Below, piece after piece: positions 1 through 7,975 of a stretch of 64,000 nucleotides of DNA. Location: NCBI RefSeq assembly GCF_030013205.1, contig NZ_CP122648.1, one strand, 5' to 3'. Made by a program: the position numbers and the translations under genes. A model generated the notes under the pieces. The model was given only the letters and a program-made list of their open reading frames with translations. It did not search any database and was not told the origin of the DNA. This DNA is from Escherichia coli. GTDB lineage: Bacteria > Pseudomonadota > Gammaproteobacteria > Enterobacterales > Enterobacteriaceae. Numbering within the stretch: position 1 is the stretch's first letter; the number at the start of each line of letters is the position of its first letter.

Positions 1-78
1 TCCGCCGGACAGCTTAATTAATTCCTTACTTGGCCGGTTTAAGTCAGCCACGATCCGGCCTTTTTTCAGGAGCTGAAT

Positions 79-1026
79 ATGAAAACACTACCTCCAGTCG
101 CACTAGGTACATGGTCCTGGGGCACAGGCTTTGCCGGCGGCGACACCGTCTTTGGTAATCATCTTTCTGATACTCAGATGGCAGAAGTGTTCACTGCGGC
201 CATGAGTAAGGGCCTCAATCTCTGGGATACCGCAGCAGTATATGGTATGGGGAGTTCCGAGACTGCGCTGGGAGCATTAGTCCATCAGTTTCCCCGCGAG
301 AACATAATTTTATCCACCAAATTCACGCCGCAGATTGCGGACAAGCAGTCTGCGCAGCCTGTCAGCGATATGCTTGAGGCCAGCCTTGGGCGCTTGGGCG
401 TGGACGCGATTGATATCTACTGGATCCATAATCCCCTCGACGTCGAAAAATGGACGCCAGGATTGATCCCACTTTTACAAAACGGTAAGGTAAAACGCGT
501 AGGTGTTTCCAACCACAATCTGGCACAAATCAGACGCGCCAATGAAATCCTTAACGCTTCCGGTTATTCCCTCAGTGCAGTACAAAATCACTACAGCCTG
601 CTCTATCGCGCTTCTGAAGAGGCCGGGATCCTTGATTATTGCCGACAAAATAACATCACGTTCTTTGCTTACATGGTCCTGGAGCAAGGCGCGCTCAGTG
701 GTCGTTATGATTCAAATCATCCCATGCCTGCCGGGAGTGGCCGGGCCGAAAGTTATAACGCAGTACTGCCGCAGATAGAAAGACTAACTGCCGCCATGAA
801 AAAAATGGGAGCCGAAAGGAATGCCAGCGTGGCACAGATAGCCATCGCATGGGCTATTGCGAAAGGTACCCTTCCCCTCGTTGGTGCGACTAAAGTCCAT
901 CACGTTCTGGACGCCGCCTGCGCTTCAGACATCCAGTTACGCGATGAGGAAATCATCCTGCTGGAACAACTCGCCGCAGAGACCAGAGTGGATACACGAG
1001 GCGCCTGGGAAAAACCGATGGTGTAA
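79..1026 (+). CDS. Aldo-keto reductase family oxidoreductase (315 aa)
   Basis: ORF translation has AKR hallmarks (N-terminal GTWSWG motif, TIM-barrel-length product); AGGAG Shine-Dalgarno about 8 nt upstream of ATG. Confidence 0.8.
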   Translation: MKTLPPVALGTWSWGTGFAGGDTVFGNHLSDTQMAEVFTAAMSKGLNLWDTAAVYGMGSSETALGALVHQFPRENIILSTKFTPQIADKQSAQPVSDMLEASLGRLGVDAIDIYWIHNPLDVEKWTPGLIPLLQNGKVKRVGVSNHNLAQIRRANEILNASGYSLSAVQNHYSLLYRASEEAGILDYCRQNNITFFAYMVLEQGALSGRYDSNHPMPAGSGRAESYNAVLPQIERLTAAMKKMGAERNASVAQIAIAWAIAKGTLPLVGATKVHHVLDAACASDIQLRDEEIILLEQLAAETRVDTRGAWEKPMV

Positions 1027-1128
1027 AGCCCGTCCGGAACAGACTGTCATGAATGACACACACGAACGGGCTGTTCCGGGTGATTCTAATCTGTATCACT
1101 TTTACTGCTTTGTATGAATGGTGAGAAT

Positions 1129-1805
1129 ATGAAAATCATTTGCCTCGAAGAACATTATCTCGACAGCGAGTTAGGGCGAGCGTGTATGCCTGTTGCGCTT
1201 GAGCAGGCACCTTTCCTTGGCGACTGGGGGAAAACCGTCGCTGATGGTCATAATCCTGACCGACTCCCTGCTTTCCCGCTTTAATAAACTGAATGTGCCA
1301 CTCTATCTTCATCCCGGGTTACCGCTTAAAAGCGTACAGCAGGCCTACTTCACGGGCTTCAGCGCAGAGGTCAACGCCAGGCTTTCTATGTTTGCCTGGG
1401 GCTGGCATCACGAAGCGGGGATCCATTTGTTGCGGCTGATGTTATCGGGCGCATTTGATAAATATCCCAACCTGCAGGTAATCAGTGGCCACTGGGGGGA
1501 GATGTTACCCTTCTGGCTCCAGCGTCTTGATGACAGCCTACCACTGGCTGCAACGGGTCTGTCACGCACGCTAACGAGAACCTTCCAGGAACACGTTTAC
1601 GTTACCCCGCCATATGCTAACACTGCCGCACTTCCAGTTTATCTACGCGTTAATGGGTGCTGAAAGGATCCTGTTCTCCGTCGATTATCCCTATCAGACC
1701 CTGGACGGTGTAAAAACCTTTATAGACAGTCTGCCCGTCAACAAGGCTGAAAAAGAGGCCATCGCATTTCGCAATGCAGAACGTTTACTGGGCATCACGG
1801 CGTAG
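1129..1805 (+). pseudogene. Amidohydrolase-2 (ACMSD-like metal-dependent hydrolase) gene, fragmented across three reading frames
   Basis: Short N-terminal ORF from ATG 1129 stops after about 50 codons; homologous segments continue in ORFs 1193..1663 and 1614..1805 in other frames; total span about 225 codons versus about 300 expected. Confidence 0.5.
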
Positions 1806-1954
1806 TTCACGGGTTCGTGATGACCGGTACAATGAGAACAGTTGACCATTATTAGTTTTTGTCTAAAAGTGAATGAGTCTTTACTGCTCTAAAAAAATAA
1901 TGTTGTCACTCTATACTGGATTTAATATTCACCAAAGATGTTTAACTGATTGAA

Positions 1955-2527
1955 ATGAAAAATATCCTTGTTATTTCAGGTCATCCTGAGCTTACCCATT
2001 CCGTCGCCAATGCCACTATTCTTGATGAAGTGGAGACCGCCCTTCCTGATGTTGAGATTCGTCGTCTGGACAGGCTCTATCCGGATGGCAAATTCAACAT
2101 CGCGGCGGAGCAGGAAAGCCTGCTCAGGGCCGATGTGATTGTCTGGCAGTTCCCTTTTTCCTGGTATGGGCTGCCAGGATTAATGAAAAAATGGCTGGAC
2201 GAGGTCTTTGTTCACGGCTTCGCGCATGGCTCAACGGCGAAACTGGGCGGTAAAAAGCTGATCCTCTCCTTTACAACGGGAGCGCCAGAGGAGCTCTATA
2301 CCGTCGACAGTTTCTTTGGCCATACCATTGAAGAGTATCTTATTCCGTTCGAAACCACGGCAAGGCTGTGCAATCTTGAGCTGCTGACGCCGGTTTATAC
2401 CTGCGGTATCAGCTATGCCGACCGGGATGCCGACAAAATCGCGCAGCAAAAAACGCTTGCCCGGGAACACGCTTCAAGGCTTGTCGAACTGCTCAATTCC
2501 GTCGTGAATAATCCAGAGGGAGAATAA
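1955..2527 (+). CDS. Flavodoxin-like fold NAD(P)H dehydrogenase (quinone) family protein (190 aa)
   Basis: Translation begins MKNILVISGHP with WQFPFSWYGLPGLMKKWLD, typical of flavodoxin-2 NAD(P)H quinone reductases; stop is 2 nt before next gene. Confidence 0.7.
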   Translation: MKNILVISGHPELTHSVANATILDEVETALPDVEIRRLDRLYPDGKFNIAAEQESLLRADVIVWQFPFSWYGLPGLMKKWLDEVFVHGFAHGSTAKLGGKKLILSFTTGAPEELYTVDSFFGHTIEEYLIPFETTARLCNLELLTPVYTCGISYADRDADKIAQQKTLAREHASRLVELLNSVVNNPEGE

Positions 2528-2529
2528 CA

Positions 2530-3549
2530 ATGCAGTATACCCGGCTCGGTAAAAGTGACTTACTTGTTTCCCGCATCTGCATGGGATGCATGGGGTTTGG
2601 CGATCCGTCGACGGGTCAGCATAGCTGGACGCTGGACGAAACAGCAAGCCGCGACATCATTCGCTATGGCCTTGAAAAGGGCATCAACTTTTACGATACC
2701 GCTATAGCCTACCAGAATGGCTCCAGTGAGCGATACGTTGGCCGGGCATTACGGGAGATGGCGAAACGCGATGATATCGTCCTGGCCACCAAGTTTCTGC
2801 CGCGAACCCCCGCACAAATTGCCGGAGGGATCAGCGGAAAAGAGGCAATCGCTCAATCCCTTGACCAGAGCCTGAAGAATCTGGGGATGGACTATATCGA
2901 CCTCTACATCTACCACATCTGGGATTACAACACGCCCATTATCGACGTGCTTGAAGCGTTACATACCGCTGTTACTGCTGGCAAAGTACGAGCTGTTGGT
3001 ATTTCAAACTGCTATGCCTGGCAGCTGGCGAAGGCGAACGCCCTTGCTGAACGCGAAGGGCTGACGCCCTTTGTTTCCGTACAGAGCCACTACAATCTAA
3101 TTATGCGCGAAGATGAACGGGAGCTCTTCGGCCTGTGCACTGAGGATAATATCGCAATGACCCCCTATAGCGCGCTGGCCAGCGGCCGCCTCTCTCGTAA
3201 AGAAGGCTATACACGGCGAGCCACAGAGGATGACTATGCGCGTGGAAAATATGACAGCACGGCTGAACAGGATCGCAGCATTATTGAGCGTGTAGCCGAA
3301 CTGGCCGAACGCCATCTGGTGTCAATGACGGAAATATCTCTCGCTTGGCTGCTGACAAAAGTCACATCACCTGTCGTAGGGGCTACAAAAAAAGCTCATG
3401 TCGATGGCGCGGTAAACGCAGTAAATCTTCAACTAAGTCCGGAGGAAATTCAGTTTCTGGAAGAAACCTACCAGCCGCATGTTCTGACGGGGATCATGGC
3501 GCAAAATACGCCGCAAACGAAAGATGTTAAGCAGGTCTGGATGCGATAG
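2530..3549 (+). CDS. Aldo-keto reductase (Tas/YajO-like, 339 aa)
   Basis: ORF translation (RLGKSDLLVSRICMGCMGFGD, IDLYIYH) matches the AKR family; tightly coupled to upstream gene. Confidence 0.8.
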   Translation: MQYTRLGKSDLLVSRICMGCMGFGDPSTGQHSWTLDETASRDIIRYGLEKGINFYDTAIAYQNGSSERYVGRALREMAKRDDIVLATKFLPRTPAQIAGGISGKEAIAQSLDQSLKNLGMDYIDLYIYHIWDYNTPIIDVLEALHTAVTAGKVRAVGISNCYAWQLAKANALAEREGLTPFVSVQSHYNLIMREDERELFGLCTEDNIAMTPYSALASGRLSRKEGYTRRATEDDYARGKYDSTAEQDRSIIERVAELAERHLVSMTEISLAWLLTKVTSPVVGATKKAHVDGAVNAVNLQLSPEEIQFLEETYQPHVLTGIMAQNTPQTKDVKQVWMR

Positions 3550-3664
3550 CCCTTATTCACTTTTCCTCCTCTCGTCTTTGAGAGCGCCAGTAGCGGTCGG
3601 TTACGTTCTTACCAGCACCAGTTGATCGAACGTCTTAAACAGTAACGTCAGTAAAAAGATCATC

Positions 3665-4390
3665 GTGAAAAAGACTTTTATGCTTTTAATTTGCATGCTA
3701 ATAAGCAGCCCTGTCTTTGCAACAAAACCGGACGCGCCGAATAAGTCGGAGATGAATATCTTCGAGCTCGGCATCAGACCCGATCGGGACAACGACTTTG
3801 CAGACGTGGCCAGACAGACGATTTCCGCTTCGGTTGATCATGAAGCAGGTACACTGGCGATGTATGCCCTGCAACGCAGCGACAATTCAGGTCAGGCATT
3901 CATGTTCGAACTCTATGAAAATGAGCGTGCTTATCGCAAACATCTCAATGCCGCCCCATACAAAGCATTCGCTGCTCGTGCACCTGACATTATTGACAGG
4001 AAGAAGAAAATTACCCTGGAGCCACAGTTTCTGGGCGACAAACACATCATACCGAATGAACGAACTATCAATAATCTGGTGATCGTCGAAGTAAAGCCTG
4101 AATTTCAGAGCGAATTTAGAAACATCGTCCTTCCTGAAATGGTCGAGTCGCTCAAAGTAGAGAAAGGCGTGTTAGCCATGTATGCCGGTACAGATTCAGA
4201 GACTCCAAAACGCTGGTATTTCTATGAGATTTACGCCAGTGAGGAGGATTATCAACTGCACCGACAAACGCTGCACTTCCTGGATTACCTCAGGCAAACG
4301 GCGCATATGAGCGCCAGGAAGGACGCAATCCCGGTAAAACCGGTATTTCTTCGTAACAAAGGCGGAATCAAACAGGAGCCGCAACGTTGA
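3665..4390 (+). CDS. Secreted protein with two tandem ABM (antibiotic biosynthesis monooxygenase-like) domains (241 aa)
   Basis: N-terminal signal-peptide-like segment (MKKTFMLLICMLISSPVFA); two repeats with the ABM-type YExYxxExxYxxH pattern (FELYENERAYRKHL and YEIYASEEDYQLHR). Confidence 0.55.
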   Translation: MKKTFMLLICMLISSPVFATKPDAPNKSEMNIFELGIRPDRDNDFADVARQTISASVDHEAGTLAMYALQRSDNSGQAFMFELYENERAYRKHLNAAPYKAFAARAPDIIDRKKKITLEPQFLGDKHIIPNERTINNLVIVEVKPEFQSEFRNIVLPEMVESLKVEKGVLAMYAGTDSETPKRWYFYEIYASEEDYQLHRQTLHFLDYLRQTAHMSARKDAIPVKPVFLRNKGGIKQEPQR

Positions 4391-4405
4391 CCAGTAAGGA
4401 TTAAC

Positions 4406-5170
4406 ATGAAAAGCGTACTTGCAGCAGCGGCTATGTCGCTTGTTATTTCTGATTTTGCCAATGCTGAGGAAACAAGAGGTAAAGCTATGATGAAAATAGA
4501 ACCGTCAGCGATTTCGGAAGCTGATATTCGTTCCGTCTCACCGGCTCTCGCGCGCTTTGGTCGCGAAGCTATTACTGAAGATCTGTGGACACGCGACGCC
4601 CTCTCACCGAGGGATCGTAGTGTGGTGACCGTCGCCATGCTGATTGCCCGCAACCAGCCTGCCGAGCTTAAGCACTATATTGACGTCGCTCTCGATAGCG
4701 GCGTGACGCCAGCGGAATTATCAGAAATCATTACCCATCTGGCGTTCTACTCAGGTTGGCCAAATGCAATGTCAGCCGTCAGCGTGATCAAAGCAGTATT
4801 TGAAACTCGTGGCGTCACGGCAGATGCACTTCCTGAAGCTTCTCCGGACCTGCTTCCTCTCAATCAGGAAGCAGAAAAGCAGCGTTCAGAGACAGTGGAA
4901 AAAAATGTTGGCCCAATATCTCCAGGCCTGGTTAAATTCACTGCTGATCCACTCTTCCTGGATCTCTGGCAAAGACCCGCGCTGAAACCCCGCGACAGAA
5001 GCCTGATTACGGTCAGCGCCTTAATCGCATCCGGACAGAGCGCGCAGATTGGCTATCACCTCAATAGAGCAATGGATAATGGACTTTCGGTGAGATCGTT
5101 ACCCAGGCCGCCTTCTATGCTGGCTGGCCAAACGCATTTACCGCTGCTCCGGTTGTGGGAGAGGTGCTAA
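4406..5170 (+). CDS. Carboxymuconolactone decarboxylase (CMD/AhpD-like) family protein with two CMD repeats; C-terminus apparently frameshifted
   Basis: Two repeats of the DRSxxTV...HLAFYxGWPNA pattern; the second repeat's conserved motif (EIVTQAAFYAGWPNAF) is encoded in a different frame from about 5092 and runs to a stop at 5196. Confidence 0.6.
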   Translation: MKSVLAAAAMSLVISDFANAEETRGKAMMKIEPSAISEADIRSVSPALARFGREAITEDLWTRDALSPRDRSVVTVAMLIARNQPAELKHYIDVALDSGVTPAELSEIITHLAFYSGWPNAMSAVSVIKAVFETRGVTADALPEASPDLLPLNQEAEKQRSETVEKNVGPISPGLVKFTADPLFLDLWQRPALKPRDRSLITVSALIASGQSAQIGYHLNRAMDNGLSVRSLPRPPSMLAGQTHLPLLRLWERC

Positions 5171-5610
5171 ACAATCGATCATCGAGTAAAAGGTAACATT
5201 ACTGAACACTAAAACCTGACGCACATCACAAAATTAGAACGATCAGTTCATGAACCAACAGACGTGACATCGAGTGATTTATGGACAGCGTTTAACACAG
5301 TTATGAACCAAAACTGAGTTCATAACTGTGAGTTTGAATCGTCATTTGATTAATATCCATTTAAAACAGTTTGTTATGCTGTTTCTGGTGCTGAAGTCAA
5401 TTATGTATATCCCTCAAACCCAGAATAGTTAAATGGAATTTGAGTGATGCGAAGCGATTTTACGGTCGTCGTTATTACTTCAGGGTTCCAGAACATAAAG
5501 CCTCTCCTCTTTCATGATTGGCCTGTGCATACCTGATATAGGCTGGCTGGTATGCAGGTTTGCCGTTTGCCGCATCTTCCCTGCGTTGAAGAGTCAGGCT
5601 GGCAAACCGC

Positions 5611-5865
5611 GTGCAAATGAACACCCCCTCTTTCCATCAACAATTCAGACAGCTTGCGGGAATGAGTCCACTCCGGTATCAGAAATGGCTACGCCTCAAT
5701 GAAGCCAGGCGACTGATGCTGAATGAACATTACGATGTCACCACTGCAGCCTATGCTGTCGGTTACGAAAGCTTATCCCATTTCAGTCGGGAATATTCGC
5801 GGATGTTTGGAGAGTCACCTAAGAGAGATATTACCAGGTTAAGAAAGTCTGTCGGTCAGCTTTAA
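5611..5865 (+). pseudogene. yneL: AraC-family regulator remnant, C-terminal HTH domain only (yneL-like)
   Basis: 84-aa ORF contains only the AraC-type HTH region (LAGMSPLRYQKWLRLNEARRLM ... SLSHFSREYSRMFGESP); no intact N-terminal domain ORF upstream. Confidence 0.55.
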
Positions 5866-6297
5866 TAAACCCTGCACTTATCTGTTTAGAGCAATTCCGT
5901 GTTAGTTACACCAGGCAAACATTAACCATAGCTAATGTTTTATAGCCATATAAACCATTGGCCGCTCTTGACCTTTCCTGACACTTCCCTTGTTCGCAAT
6001 AATATTCTGTTTAGTCGCTGTTTATAAATAACATGCATAATGAAATCGTAATGTTATTTAGCGACATAAAATGTCTTTGCAAATACTCTCTACAACAAGT
6101 GCTGCAATAAACTTGTTGTGATTAGGTGTCCTTGTAATTTAAAGATATTATCGTTCTTCGTGAAATGTAATAACCCTGGAACTATATTCTCAGGGCAATA
6201 TCCCATCAAGAATGATTCTTGTTTTATAAGCAATAACAGAATGACTTAATTGTTAACTTTCTTTATTCAGCTACTTAAATATAAATTTTGGAGAATT

Positions 6298-6861
6298 ATG
6301 AAACTCAAACATGTCGGTATGATTGTCGTTTCTGTGTTGGCGATGTCGTCTGCTGCGGTAAGCGCAGCCGAGGGTGATGAATCAGTAACGACCACTGTTA
6401 ATGGCGGTGTTATTCATTTTAAAGGTGAAGTGGTAAATGCCGCTTGTGCGATTGATTCAGAATCAATGAACCAAACGGTTGAGCTGGGTCAGGTCCGTTC
6501 TTCTCGTCTGGCTAAAGCGGGTGACCTCAGCTCCGCCGTTGGCTTCAATATCAAGCTGAATGATTGTGATACCAATGTTTCCAGTAATGCAGCTGTTGCA
6601 TTCCTGGGTACTACTGTCACCAGTAATGACGACACATTAGCGCTTCAGAGTTCAGCGGCAGGCTCTGCCCAAAATGTCGGTATTCAAATTTTGGACCGTA
6701 CGGGTGAGGTATTAATACTTGATGGTGCCACTTTTAGTGCTAAAACTGACTTGATTGATGGCACGAATATATTGCCGTTCCAGGCTAGATATATTGCTCT
6801 CGGGCAGTCAGTAGCTGGTACTGCAAACGCTGATGCGACCTTCAAAGTTCAATATCTATAA
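6298..6861 (+). CDS. Fimbrial major subunit (type-1-like pilin; F9/Fml-type operon)
   Basis: 187-aa product from internal ATG with GGAG RBS; signal peptide, conserved pilin Cys pair and C-terminal beta strand (ATFKVQYL); first gene of the chaperone-usher operon. Confidence 0.8.
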
Positions 6862-6902
6862 TTCAATCTTAAGGTGGCTATACGTCATCTGAAATTGAAA
6901 CA

Positions 6903-6933
6903 GGGTGTGTGTGGCATGGCTACGCACACCCGA
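6903..6933 (+). terminator. Hairpin after the major pilin gene (possible intra-operon attenuator)
   Basis: GGGTGTG ... CACACCC inverted repeat immediately downstream of the pilin stop codon. Confidence 0.3.
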
Positions 6934-7214
6934 GCAATTCACCAATGTTCATCTCATTATTAATGAGGAATAGTTTGTGTTTTGGAGCGGTATGAAAAAA
7001 TCACATAATATCTAAACGATCAATAAACAACAGTAGTTAAACTTACTGTTATTTAAAATATTTACTTTGTAGCAAGGTTTTCCTATTAAAAGAGAACCAA
7101 CATTTATTACAAACGCATTAAGTCTGGAAACCCGGCGAGTCGCCAATGTATTAGCAATATTTACTGATTGTCTGATGTAACGGTTTTCCCGCTTATCCTC
7201 TTAACACATGGAGA

Positions 7215-7934
7215 ATGCATCAGATGCAAACTACGCGTACCCCCTACTCTATTTCCTTTATGGCGACAGTGTTACTTTTATTGCTCTTTGCTTGCCATAG
7301 CACCATTGCCAACGCAGCTGTCGCACTGGGTGCGACGCGGGTAATTTATCCGGCAAACCAGAAACAGGTTTTATTGCCTGTCACGAATAATGATCCTGCC
7401 AGTGTCTATCTCATTCAGTCATGGATAGAAAATGCAGGTGACCAAAAAGACACCCAGTTTGTCATTACCCCACCGCTTTTTTCCATGCAAGGTAAAAAAG
7501 AGAATACGCTGCGGATAATCAACGCCACTAATCATCAGTTACCAGGCGACCGTGAAAGCCTGTTCTGGGTTAATGTTAAAGCTATTCCTGCTATGGAAAA
7601 AGACCAGAAGAATGAGAATACATTACAGCTGGCAATTATTAGCCGCATAAAAATGTTTTATCGCCCCACGAACCTGGCAATGGCACCTGAAGAAGCGCCA
7701 GCAATGCTTCGGTTTCGTCGCAGCGGTAGCAAACTCACTCTTATTAATCCAACGCCCTACTTCATTACCGTAACAAATATGAAAGCAGGAAATAGCAATC
7801 TCCCAAACACCATGGTGCCGCCAAAAGGTGAAGTATCGGTGGATATCCCGCATGCTGCAACCGGGGATATCAGTTTTCAGACGATCAATGATTACGGTGC
7901 ATTAACTCCGCGTATTAAGGCAACCATGCAGTAA
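7215..7934 (+). CDS. Periplasmic fimbrial chaperone (PapD/FimC family)
   Basis: 239-aa ORF with signal peptide and chaperone-type motifs (RVIYPA, FWVNVKAIP); positioned between pilin and usher. Confidence 0.85.
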   Translation: MHQMQTTRTPYSISFMATVLLLLLFACHSTIANAAVALGATRVIYPANQKQVLLPVTNNDPASVYLIQSWIENAGDQKDTQFVITPPLFSMQGKKENTLRIINATNHQLPGDRESLFWVNVKAIPAMEKDQKNENTLQLAIISRIKMFYRPTNLAMAPEEAPAMLRFRRSGSKLTLINPTPYFITVTNMKAGNSNLPNTMVPPKGEVSVDIPHAATGDISFQTINDYGALTPRIKATMQ

Positions 7935-7975
7935 GCCAGTGACCTAATTAATAATAAACTCAATCGGAATTAATA

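Follow-up and report, generated by a model that had tools for sequence, protein, structure and literature searches.

Positions 79–5170 of a 64,000-nucleotide stretch of Escherichia coli DNA (contig NZ_CP122648.1; the whole stretch is called the window) belong to a gene module that lies beside the remnant of the regulatory gene yneL. Our preferred reading, to which we give a probability of roughly 0.6, is that this module is a mobile operon of ~7.2 kb, controlled by a LysR protein and encoding redox and detoxification enzymes, which has been reduced and is decaying in E. coli. We infer that detoxification is its function, in the form of a LysR-induced response to quinone or hydroxyquinol-type electrophiles. 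The first 6500 nucleotides of the window are 100% identical to the chromosome of the swine isolate K_EC180 and to a set of swine enterotoxigenic E. coli (ETEC)/O139:H1 genomes. The RefSeq annotation of the K_EC180 locus (L001) was used for genes lying beyond the left edge of the window, and the K-12 MG1655 locus is designated L002.

Gene content, regulator and mobility

Six genes, all on the + strand, are found between 79 and 5170 in the open reading frame (ORF) listing, at the positions given by an initial annotation made from the letters alone. The domains that it had named (two aldo-keto reductases (AKRs), Amidohydro_2, Flavodoxin_2, tandem ABM and tandem CMD) all pass Pfam, which was run on spacer-joined concatenates of proteins, with local matches and with coordinates and E-values reported per domain. 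The six-gene extent did not hold, its left limit being an artefact of the window edge. In K_EC180, the run of same-strand genes continues upstream with a DJ-1/PfpI gene and a gene for a 102-aa protein, followed by a divergent LysR gene with HTH_1 and LysR_substrate domains. The E. coli unit comprises nine genes, LysR plus eight others, located directly after hipBA, and the fullest version comprises eleven. The gene order is LysR (divergent), 102-aa protein, DJ-1/PfpI, AKR1, Amidohydro_2, Flavodoxin_2, AKR2, tandem ABM and tandem CMD, with AKR2 starting 2 nt past the Flavodoxin_2 stop. The features are as follows.

L001 6974–9017, outside the window: remainder of the DJ-1/PfpI gene, 102-aa gene and divergent LysR gene (RefSeq, Pfam)
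1–17, + strand: last 17 nt of the DJ-1/PfpI gene, the remainder lying upstream (RefSeq, from the 100% identical K_EC180 locus)
79–1026, + strand: AKR1, intact, 315 aa (Pfam Aldo_ket_red, E 3.4e-55)
~1129–1805, + strand: Amidohydro_2 pseudogene in three frames (Pfam E 3e-14 on the window fragments, model positions 127–289 only)
1955–2527, + strand: Flavodoxin_2 NAD(P)H-dependent (quinone) oxidoreductase, intact, 190 aa (Pfam E 7.9e-39, model positions 1–194 of 198)
2530–3549, + strand: AKR2, intact, 339 aa (Pfam E 1.9e-68)
3550–3664, no strand: short intergenic scar, where relatives have extra genes for exported proteins (comparison across genera)
3665–4390, + strand: tandem ABM protein of 241 aa, started at the GTG at 3665, with predicted N-terminal signal peptide (two ABM domains, E 5e-10 and 8e-11)
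4406–5196, ORF ending at 5170, + strand: tandem CMD (PcaC-like) pseudogene with predicted signal peptide (Pfam, three-way alignment)
5197–5440, no strand: right non-coding flank, part of the indel, common to Enterobacter sichuanensis up to ~5434; the K-12 deletion ends at ~5440
5539–5598, − strand: alpha/beta-hydrolase fragment of 20 codons, outside the module (tblastn)
5599/5611–5865, + strand: yneL-type AraC remnant, outside the module (HTH_18, E 9e-20)

A 12-bp deletion at window position 23, between the DJ-1/PfpI gene and AKR1, distinguishes the window lineage from a sequence type 69 (ST69) genome and from strain WCHEC4533; among these three genomes it is found in the window lineage only.

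Judged from sequence, the regulator of the module is the divergent LysR protein and not the AraC remnant. In an alignment of the region between the LysR gene and the operon from 13 loci in other genera, an invariant ATTnTTA..TA....CTAA block with a T-N11-A motif occurs together with a −10-like TTATACT, and both are kept irrespective of which gene comes first in the operon. This conservation supports LysR as the module regulator. The predicted LysR box is located off the window, at ~L001 7900–7920. The best NCBIfam model for the LysR protein is YafC, with 163 bits against a cut-off of 470 bits, and the protein has no orthologue among characterised LysR-type transcriptional regulators (LTTRs).

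The initial annotation had instead proposed the yneL-like AraC remnant as the regulator of the cluster. The remnant does adjoin the cluster in the same orientation, ~400 bp downstream of the CMD gene, yet it is also kept in K-12, which has no module, while the module copies of Pantoea, Rahnella, Pectobacterium, Serratia and the Enterobacter mori plasmid have no AraC gene at that end and all have LysR with its box. The remnant is 95.5% identical to K-12 yneL at the DNA level over the shared part, K-12 homology beginning at 5656. It covers only positions 5–76 of HTH_18, RefSeq notes a ‘missing N-terminus’, and it falls short of the AraC/XylS architecture of an N-terminal domain plus a full DNA-binding domain with two helix-turn-helix (HTH) motifs. 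It starts inside the first HTH, whereas a 128-aa Klebsiella version has the entire DNA-binding domain. This Klebsiella gene is divergent from an alpha/beta-hydrolase gene, with no module gene within 16 kb. In the window, the hydrolase fragment at 5539–5598 on the − strand corresponds to aa 219–238 of the 360-aa Enterobacter mori hydrolase (85% identity by tblastn), which is intact on the E. mori chromosome (L030 18518–19600). The fragment directly abuts the AraC remnant, which points to a single deletion having collapsed a divergent hydrolase/AraC pair. A regulatory role of yneL in the cluster is thus close to excluded; yneL is the stump of that pair and a mere neighbour of the LysR-controlled module. 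A full-length AraC ancestor of yneL was sought, and the close relatives are all short (82–154 aa); distant relatives alone hint at an AraC_N-type N-terminus.

The module is widely distributed outside E. coli, as seen by scanning a genome collection with the ABM protein and then applying tblastn with all module proteins. The full gene order occurs in Pantoea deserta, Rahnella rivi, Pectobacterium peruviense, Serratia plymuthica and S. inhibens, at 75–98% amino-acid identity. Trimmed versions are found in Raoultella, Erwinia and Chimaeribacter, and a minimal core of LysR, Flavodoxin_2 reductase and tandem ABM, often with an AKR, in Buttiauxella, other Rahnella, Neisseria, Eikenella and Pasteurellaceae. 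The DNA identity of the E. coli module is 91.5% with Rahnella rivi and with Enterobacter sichuanensis, and 89% with Pantoea deserta. This cross-genus homology is bounded by the LysR stop and the CMD stop, and the flanks have no detectable homology. With ~91% DNA identity limited to the module, vertical descent between families is impossible. The GC content of the module, 49.8%, is not atypical.

Plasmids of Enterobacter mori (213–214 kb) carry the full 11-gene version over 10.4 kb, at 91.3% identity, among further AKR, short-chain dehydrogenase/reductase, NADP-oxidoreductase and alkene-reductase genes, and one of these plasmids comes from a plant isolate. The extra genes of relatives, a DUF1330-like gene and one for a second flavodoxin-like reductase, stand between AKR2 and ABM. 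Both are present in Rahnella and on the E. mori plasmid, one each in Pantoea and Enterobacter sichuanensis, and a fusion remnant in Pectobacterium, while all E. coli copies have neither. These comparisons indicate a horizontally mobile module, with E. coli carrying a reduced version derived from the plasmid-borne form of plant-associated Enterobacterales.

Several observations concern the same genes in these hosts. The longest ORF of the second flavodoxin-like NAD(P)H oxidoreductase (L008 9337–9960, L005 2280–2900, L038 14302–14850) starts with MMVLRQRRAAALFLFAFIFLMPVSHA, a hydrophobic leader containing RR; the RefSeq start is shorter and omits it. This leader is possibly a twin-arginine translocation (Tat) signal, and an exported flavoprotein reductase would be unusual. 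At the equivalent site of the Enterobacter mori chromosome (L030 9836–17812), a 100-bp ABM fragment is all that remains of the module. Next come ~7 kb of large genes resembling a defence island, which encode receiver-like and nucleosidase-like domains and include proteins of 966 and 676 aa; beyond them lies the alpha/beta-hydrolase gene. Short matches of both E. coli flanks at this site suggest that the same site once held the module in Enterobacter.

Matches on E. coli plasmids were considered as possible intact copies and rejected as scraps. For example, the ETEC virulence plasmid pE300444_144 (L034 8897–9372) carries a C-terminal CMD fragment and a sliver of the NAD(P)H oxidoreductase at ~92% identity, adjoining an enterotoxin B-subunit gene and insertion sequence (IS) remnants. 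Similar scraps of 370–410 bp are found on several Klebsiella and E. coli plasmids. Two full-coverage ‘plasmid’ matches in PLSDB were also discarded, the 4.9-Mb records being mislabelled chromosomes.

Decay in E. coli and the K-12 gap

The module is present in 448 of 5,426 complete E. coli genomes (at least 80% of 79–5170 covered) and missing from 92% of them, so that the strain-variable content suspected at the outset is confirmed. The initial annotation had also taken two enzymes to be decaying, and alignments and genome counts identify these as the amidohydrolase and the CMD protein. The amidohydrolase deletion was counted with a probe spanning its junction.

Set against the intact 344-aa orthologues of Pantoea, Rahnella and Serratia, the amidohydrolase gene has a 356-bp internal deletion, with its junction at 1261|1262 between ATCCTGAC microhomologies. 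This deletion occurs in 469 E. coli genomes, essentially all carriers, and 359 of the 469 have a second lesion, a 2-bp deletion after 1612. The Amidohydro_2 model is covered over 127–289 in the window, against 24–289 in the Pantoea orthologue (E 1.8e-34), and the window copy has no complete TIM-barrel ORF of an Amidohydro_2 decarboxylase. In the CMD gene, a 13-bp deletion after 5088 shifts the frame, and the second domain ends at model position 55 of 84 (E 4e-16 for domain 1 and 3e-7 for the truncated domain 2 in the window). This deletion is limited to 17 genomes, all from swine; the gene is intact in ST69 (267 aa, two full domains) and in other lineages. Decay is therefore layered: the amidohydrolase lesion runs through the whole species, the CMD lesion through a single swine lineage only.

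Further damage concerns the regulator and individual strains. The initial annotation had taken the regulator, too, to be decaying, meaning the AraC remnant; coincidentally, the LysR gene also looks damaged in this strain. In the swine lineage, two A-to-C substitutions turn CCACCACCCC in the LysR gene into a pure C tract (L001 7405, window ~−1595), and strain WCHEC4533 has the one-substitution intermediate. Within the genomes sampled for this lesion, the tract is C8, out of frame, in the window strain and K_EC180, C9 in W13-16, and C7, in frame, in ETEC6333. These length differences reflect either homopolymer slippage, of a phase-variation-like kind, or assembly error. Sister swine strains have a T3-to-T2 frameshift in the Flavodoxin_2 reductase gene, of which the window copy is intact. 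Elements of the IS66 family (ISCro1, ISEc23) lie within the 6.5-kb region in EC556, EC571, EC581 and KK19-02 and are further independent inactivations. Induction of the module in the window strain is probably poor or absent, and part of the module is dead.

A more radical interpretation is that the region is a functionally dead relic in this strain, whatever its ancestral function. The out-of-frame C8 tract of LysR, the dead amidohydrolase, the truncated CMD protein and the loss of two genes all point that way, as do the reductase frameshift of sister strains, the IS66 elements inside the module of some, and the absence of the module from 92% of E. coli genomes. Five ORFs are nevertheless intact, and an amino-acid identity of 85–98% to orthologues, against ~91% at the DNA level, does not look like the outcome of long neutral drift. 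A near-identical strain has an in-frame LysR tract (C7), the tract may be variable or wrongly assembled, and basal expression independent of LysR is possible. Complete functional death of the region is thus conceivable and on the unlikely side; we retain the reading of a reduced operon in the course of decay.

The K-12 layout given in the initial annotation is borne out by BLAST of both loci, MG1655 having hipB-hipA-yneL′-ydeT′ without the cluster. Relative to the window strain, K-12 has two deletions. The first, of 7.76 kb (L001 6685–14440, window −2315 to 5440), takes out exactly LysR through CMD plus ~250 bp. The second is clean and spans 3.28 kb (L001 15121–18399, window 6121–9399; K-12 L002 position 10080), taking fimA, the chaperone gene and the N-terminal part of the usher gene. 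The K-12 ydeT gene is a truncated usher because this deletion removed the front of the fimbrial operon. The window has a complete fimA-chaperone-usher-ydeS-ydeR-ydeQ operon, in which RefSeq flags the usher as ‘frameshifted’ despite an open 883-aa ORF at 7976–10627.

The yneL end of the interval also differs. The K-12 yneL pseudogene (b1506) is the same locus as window 5599–5865, but the window copy keeps 57 more nucleotides at its 5′ end and the adjoining hydrolase fragment, whereas K-12 has an unrelated stretch of ~112 bp between the hipA flank and yneL (L002 10544–10655). This stretch is unmatched in the window haplotype, contains the inverted repeat GCAGTGTCTGTCGCATAGACACTGC, and occupies the place of the hydrolase fragment and of the first 57 nt of the AraC remnant. 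Beside it, 90 bp show 88% identity, against 95–97% in the flanks, which means that the window and K-12 haplotypes have anciently diverged or recombined here. Strain WCHEC4533 (L003 1–1992), where the module is present, has an ISNCY transposase remnant together with a SIR2-family gene in place of hipBA on the left flank. The hipA-yneL-ydeT interval is a hotspot of deletion and rearrangement, and its variable content is now accounted for, K-12 having lost the module as well as the leading part of the ydeQRST fimbrial operon.

Predicted functions of the module proteins

The quinone, aldehyde or aromatic detoxification theme put forward in the initial annotation appears to fit the closest characterised relatives. 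The Flavodoxin_2 reductase, a core protein of the module, has KefF, GSP14, MdaB, NQO1 and NQO2 as relatives in the PDB and is closer to KefF than to MdaB. It scores 149.3 bits against the KefF model (NF002044), below the cut-off of 210 bits, and no kefC-like gene is annotated at the module locus in K_EC180 (RefSeq).

The tandem ABM and CMD proteins appear to be exported. Their N-termini combine a K-rich n-region, a hydrophobic core and an AxA motif. Enterobacterales, Neisseria and Pasteurellaceae retain these features although their sequences have diverged, and Streptococcus homologues lack them. This pattern supports signal peptides on both proteins, of which that of ABM had been predicted at the outset. 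The RefSeq start of the ABM gene, the ATG at 3695 (231 aa), removes most of the leader, while a start at the GTG at 3665 yields MKKTFMLLICMLISSPVFA, a leader that other genera conserve at the protein level. The nearest PDB entries are structural-genomics proteins in both cases, the tandem ABMs 3mcs and 3f44 for ABM and 4g9q for the tandem CMD. LsrG gives the best NCBIfam match to the ABM protein, and K-12 has the lsr operon close by; a link to LsrG and autoinducer 2 (AI-2) was considered and rejected, the score (56.5 bits) being below the equivalog cut-off of 135 bits, the protein being apparently exported, and the module being mobile and unlinked to lsr elsewhere.

Both AKRs cover positions 2–289 of the 291 of the Aldo_ket_red model (PF00248), and the motifs of the catalytic D-Y-K-H tetrad can be made out by eye (WDTAAVYG, STKF and WIHNP in AKR1). 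Their best NCBIfam match is the methylglyoxal reductase YdjG (NF049922). The DJ-1/PfpI protein (Pfam DJ-1_PfpI, E 1.2e-13) displays the Cys-His nucleophile motif AVCHGP, and its PDB relatives (4p5p, 1qvv, 4lru) are of the Hsp31/glyoxalase III class, with HchA/glyoxalase III as its best equivalog match. These resemblances would suit a defence against reactive carbonyls such as methylglyoxal and glyoxal, built on a DJ-1/Hsp31-type glyoxalase III and YdjG-like AKRs. The scores are, however, far under the equivalog cut-offs (117 and 124 bits against 550 for the AKRs, 66.7 bits against 365 for DJ-1), and both the DJ-1 gene and AKR1 are missing from many related loci in which the core is kept. Such a defence would also give no account of the flavoprotein of quinone-reductase type in the core, of the apparently exported ABM and CMD proteins or of the 102-aa protein, whose fold is discussed below. 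We consider it improbable as the main role of the module.

The remaining proteins recall the degradation of aromatic acids. The intact amidohydrolase orthologue of Pantoea matches LigW and 2,3-dihydroxybenzoate decarboxylase (2,3-DHBD) at E 1e-45 to 1e-43, and PDB relatives of the protein include LigW and the 2,3-dihydroxybenzoic acid (2,3-DHBA), gamma-resorcylate and salicylate decarboxylases. For the CMD protein (Pfam family PF02627), PcaC models come closest. The 102-aa protein (L001 8011–8319) belongs to a family of ~99-aa proteins that keep 65–70% identity even in Burkholderiales, Myxococcota and Acidobacteria. It has no Pfam or NCBIfam match, and a PDB sequence search returned noise. Its AlphaFold (AF2) model has a predicted local distance difference test (pLDDT) score of 92.7 and is matched by Foldseek to 5-chloromuconolactone isomerase (ClcF), 5-chloro-2-hydroxyhydroquinone dehydrochlorinase (TftG), the YciI-like protein HI0828 and muconolactone isomerase (MIase; 1mli), with template modelling (TM) scores of 0.65–0.71, E-values of 6e-6 to 2e-3 and only 14–21% identity in the structural alignments. 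The name ‘superoxide dismutase’ given to this family in some NCBI and UniRef records looks unsupported, the modelled fold being MIase/YciI/TftG-like.

A catabolic fragment for a hydroxy-aromatic acid could be assembled from these parts, of the beta-ketoadipate or hydroxyquinol type, leading from the decarboxylase through a lactone isomerase (the 102-aa protein) to CMD/PcaC. Such a route would require genes that are nowhere to be seen, since no ring-cleavage dioxygenase, cycloisomerase, enol-lactonase, thiolase, CoA-transferase or transporter gene is found in any module locus; likewise, no pca gene is present at the E. coli (K_EC180) or E. mori plasmid locus. The intact CMD orthologue reaches 116.4 bits against the PcaC model (TIGR02425), under the cut-off of 155.7 bits, and the apparent export of CMD is incompatible with the cytoplasmic chemistry of PcaC. 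The decarboxylase is dispensable, since every one of the 469 E. coli copies is dead and the Pectobacterium and Raoultella versions lack it, and the conserved core consists of the reductase and ABM, not of the lactone enzymes. A complete catabolic pathway is unlikely, because ring-cleavage, downstream and transporter genes are lacking and the decarboxylase can be dispensed with; we rate the catabolic alternative lower still than a carbonyl defence.

The detoxification operon that we favour may work as follows. LysR would be activated by an aromatic electrophile, such as a quinone, a hydroquinone or a compound of the hydroxyquinol type, that probably originates from plant phenolics. In the cytoplasm, NAD(P)H enzymes, namely the quinone reductase, both AKRs and the glyoxalase III-like DJ-1 protein, would then reduce quinones and reactive carbonyls. 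In the periplasm, which offers no NAD(P)H, compounds of this class would be handled by the cofactor-independent ABM and CMD proteins. A core of LysR, two-electron quinone reductase and apparently exported ABM, supplemented by accessory genes and carried by plant-associated hosts, leads to this picture of inducible protection against redox-cycling aromatics. A tentative extension, which we would sooner doubt than defend, makes the module a widespread two-compartment defence against such aromatics. It would comprise LysR, a cytoplasmic quinone reductase and exported tandem ABM/CMD proteins, joined in fuller versions by the DUF1330 protein and a possibly Tat-exported flavoprotein, with the ~99-aa MIase/YciI-fold enzyme acting on hydroxyquinol-type intermediates.

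Several points weigh against the reading of a mobile, LysR-controlled detoxification operon. Every NCBIfam match to a characterised equivalog is under the curated cut-off, and therefore no enzyme can be assigned to a specific substrate. For the ABM protein, ‘quinol monooxygenase’ is a RefSeq label only, ABM and CMD being functionally very broad families, and the signal peptides of both proteins are predictions from features of their leaders. The operon structure is deduced from spacing and synteny, and a promoter and terminator scan of window 1–6300 gave counts at shuffle level. No integrase, IS or tRNA is annotated at the borders of the E. coli module in K_EC180 (RefSeq), where border repeats were not searched exhaustively. 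The LysR frameshift may be a sequencing artefact, the homopolymer varying among near-identical assemblies. Lastly, the literature yielded no paper on this module.

Known systems and significance

A quinone redox cycle between MdaB and YgiN was reportedly proposed by Adams and Jia in 2005. The MdaB-YgiN system of E. coli and Salmonella resembles the module in combining a Flavodoxin_2 reductase with an ABM protein, a combination that forms the most broadly conserved core of the module; protection against quinones is presumably common to both. MdaB is a protective quinone reductase (PMC8765430), and mdaB and ygiN have been discussed together (PMC2653508). YgiN is a single-domain cytoplasmic protein, whereas the ABM protein of the module is a fused tandem with a signal peptide, predicted to be periplasmic. 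The module further adds AKRs, DJ-1, CMD, a decarboxylase, a MIase-fold protein and a LysR of its own.

Regulated units of a comparable kind are known. In Neisseria, CrgA-mdaB is a divergent unit of a LysR regulator and a quinone reductase, and in Bacillus subtilis MhqR and YodB control electrophile and quinone stress regulons. All of these likewise place a transcription factor beside NAD(P)H quinone reductases and detoxification enzymes. In contrast, the LTTR of the module, with its T-N11-A box, is not orthologous to any characterised LTTR. Enzymes of the beta-ketoadipate and chloroaromatic pathways (PcaC, CatC/ClcF, TftG, LigW and the gamma-resorcylate decarboxylases) also have domain or fold relatives in the module. 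The module proteins differ in lying below equivalog thresholds or in showing a likeness of fold only (14–21% identity), and the module differs from the beta-ketoadipate pathway in having no ring-cleavage or downstream genes, a CMD protein that is predicted to be exported, and a decarboxylase that is dispensable in many versions.

The module is uncharacterised, yet generically annotated in hundreds of RefSeq genomes; it is best seen as an accessory LysR-controlled oxidoreductase and detoxification operon of a familiar kind, and its copy in this genome is probably crippled. The value of the present analysis lies mostly in annotation and housekeeping, with yneL now separated from the module and no open conceptual puzzle. 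If the function proposed here is true, the module would be a portable resistance determinant against quinones and polyphenols of plant or dietary origin, and function in three large families of ‘unknown chemistry’ could be approached through tractable targets, namely its pair of exported ABM and CMD proteins and the conserved 99-aa protein.

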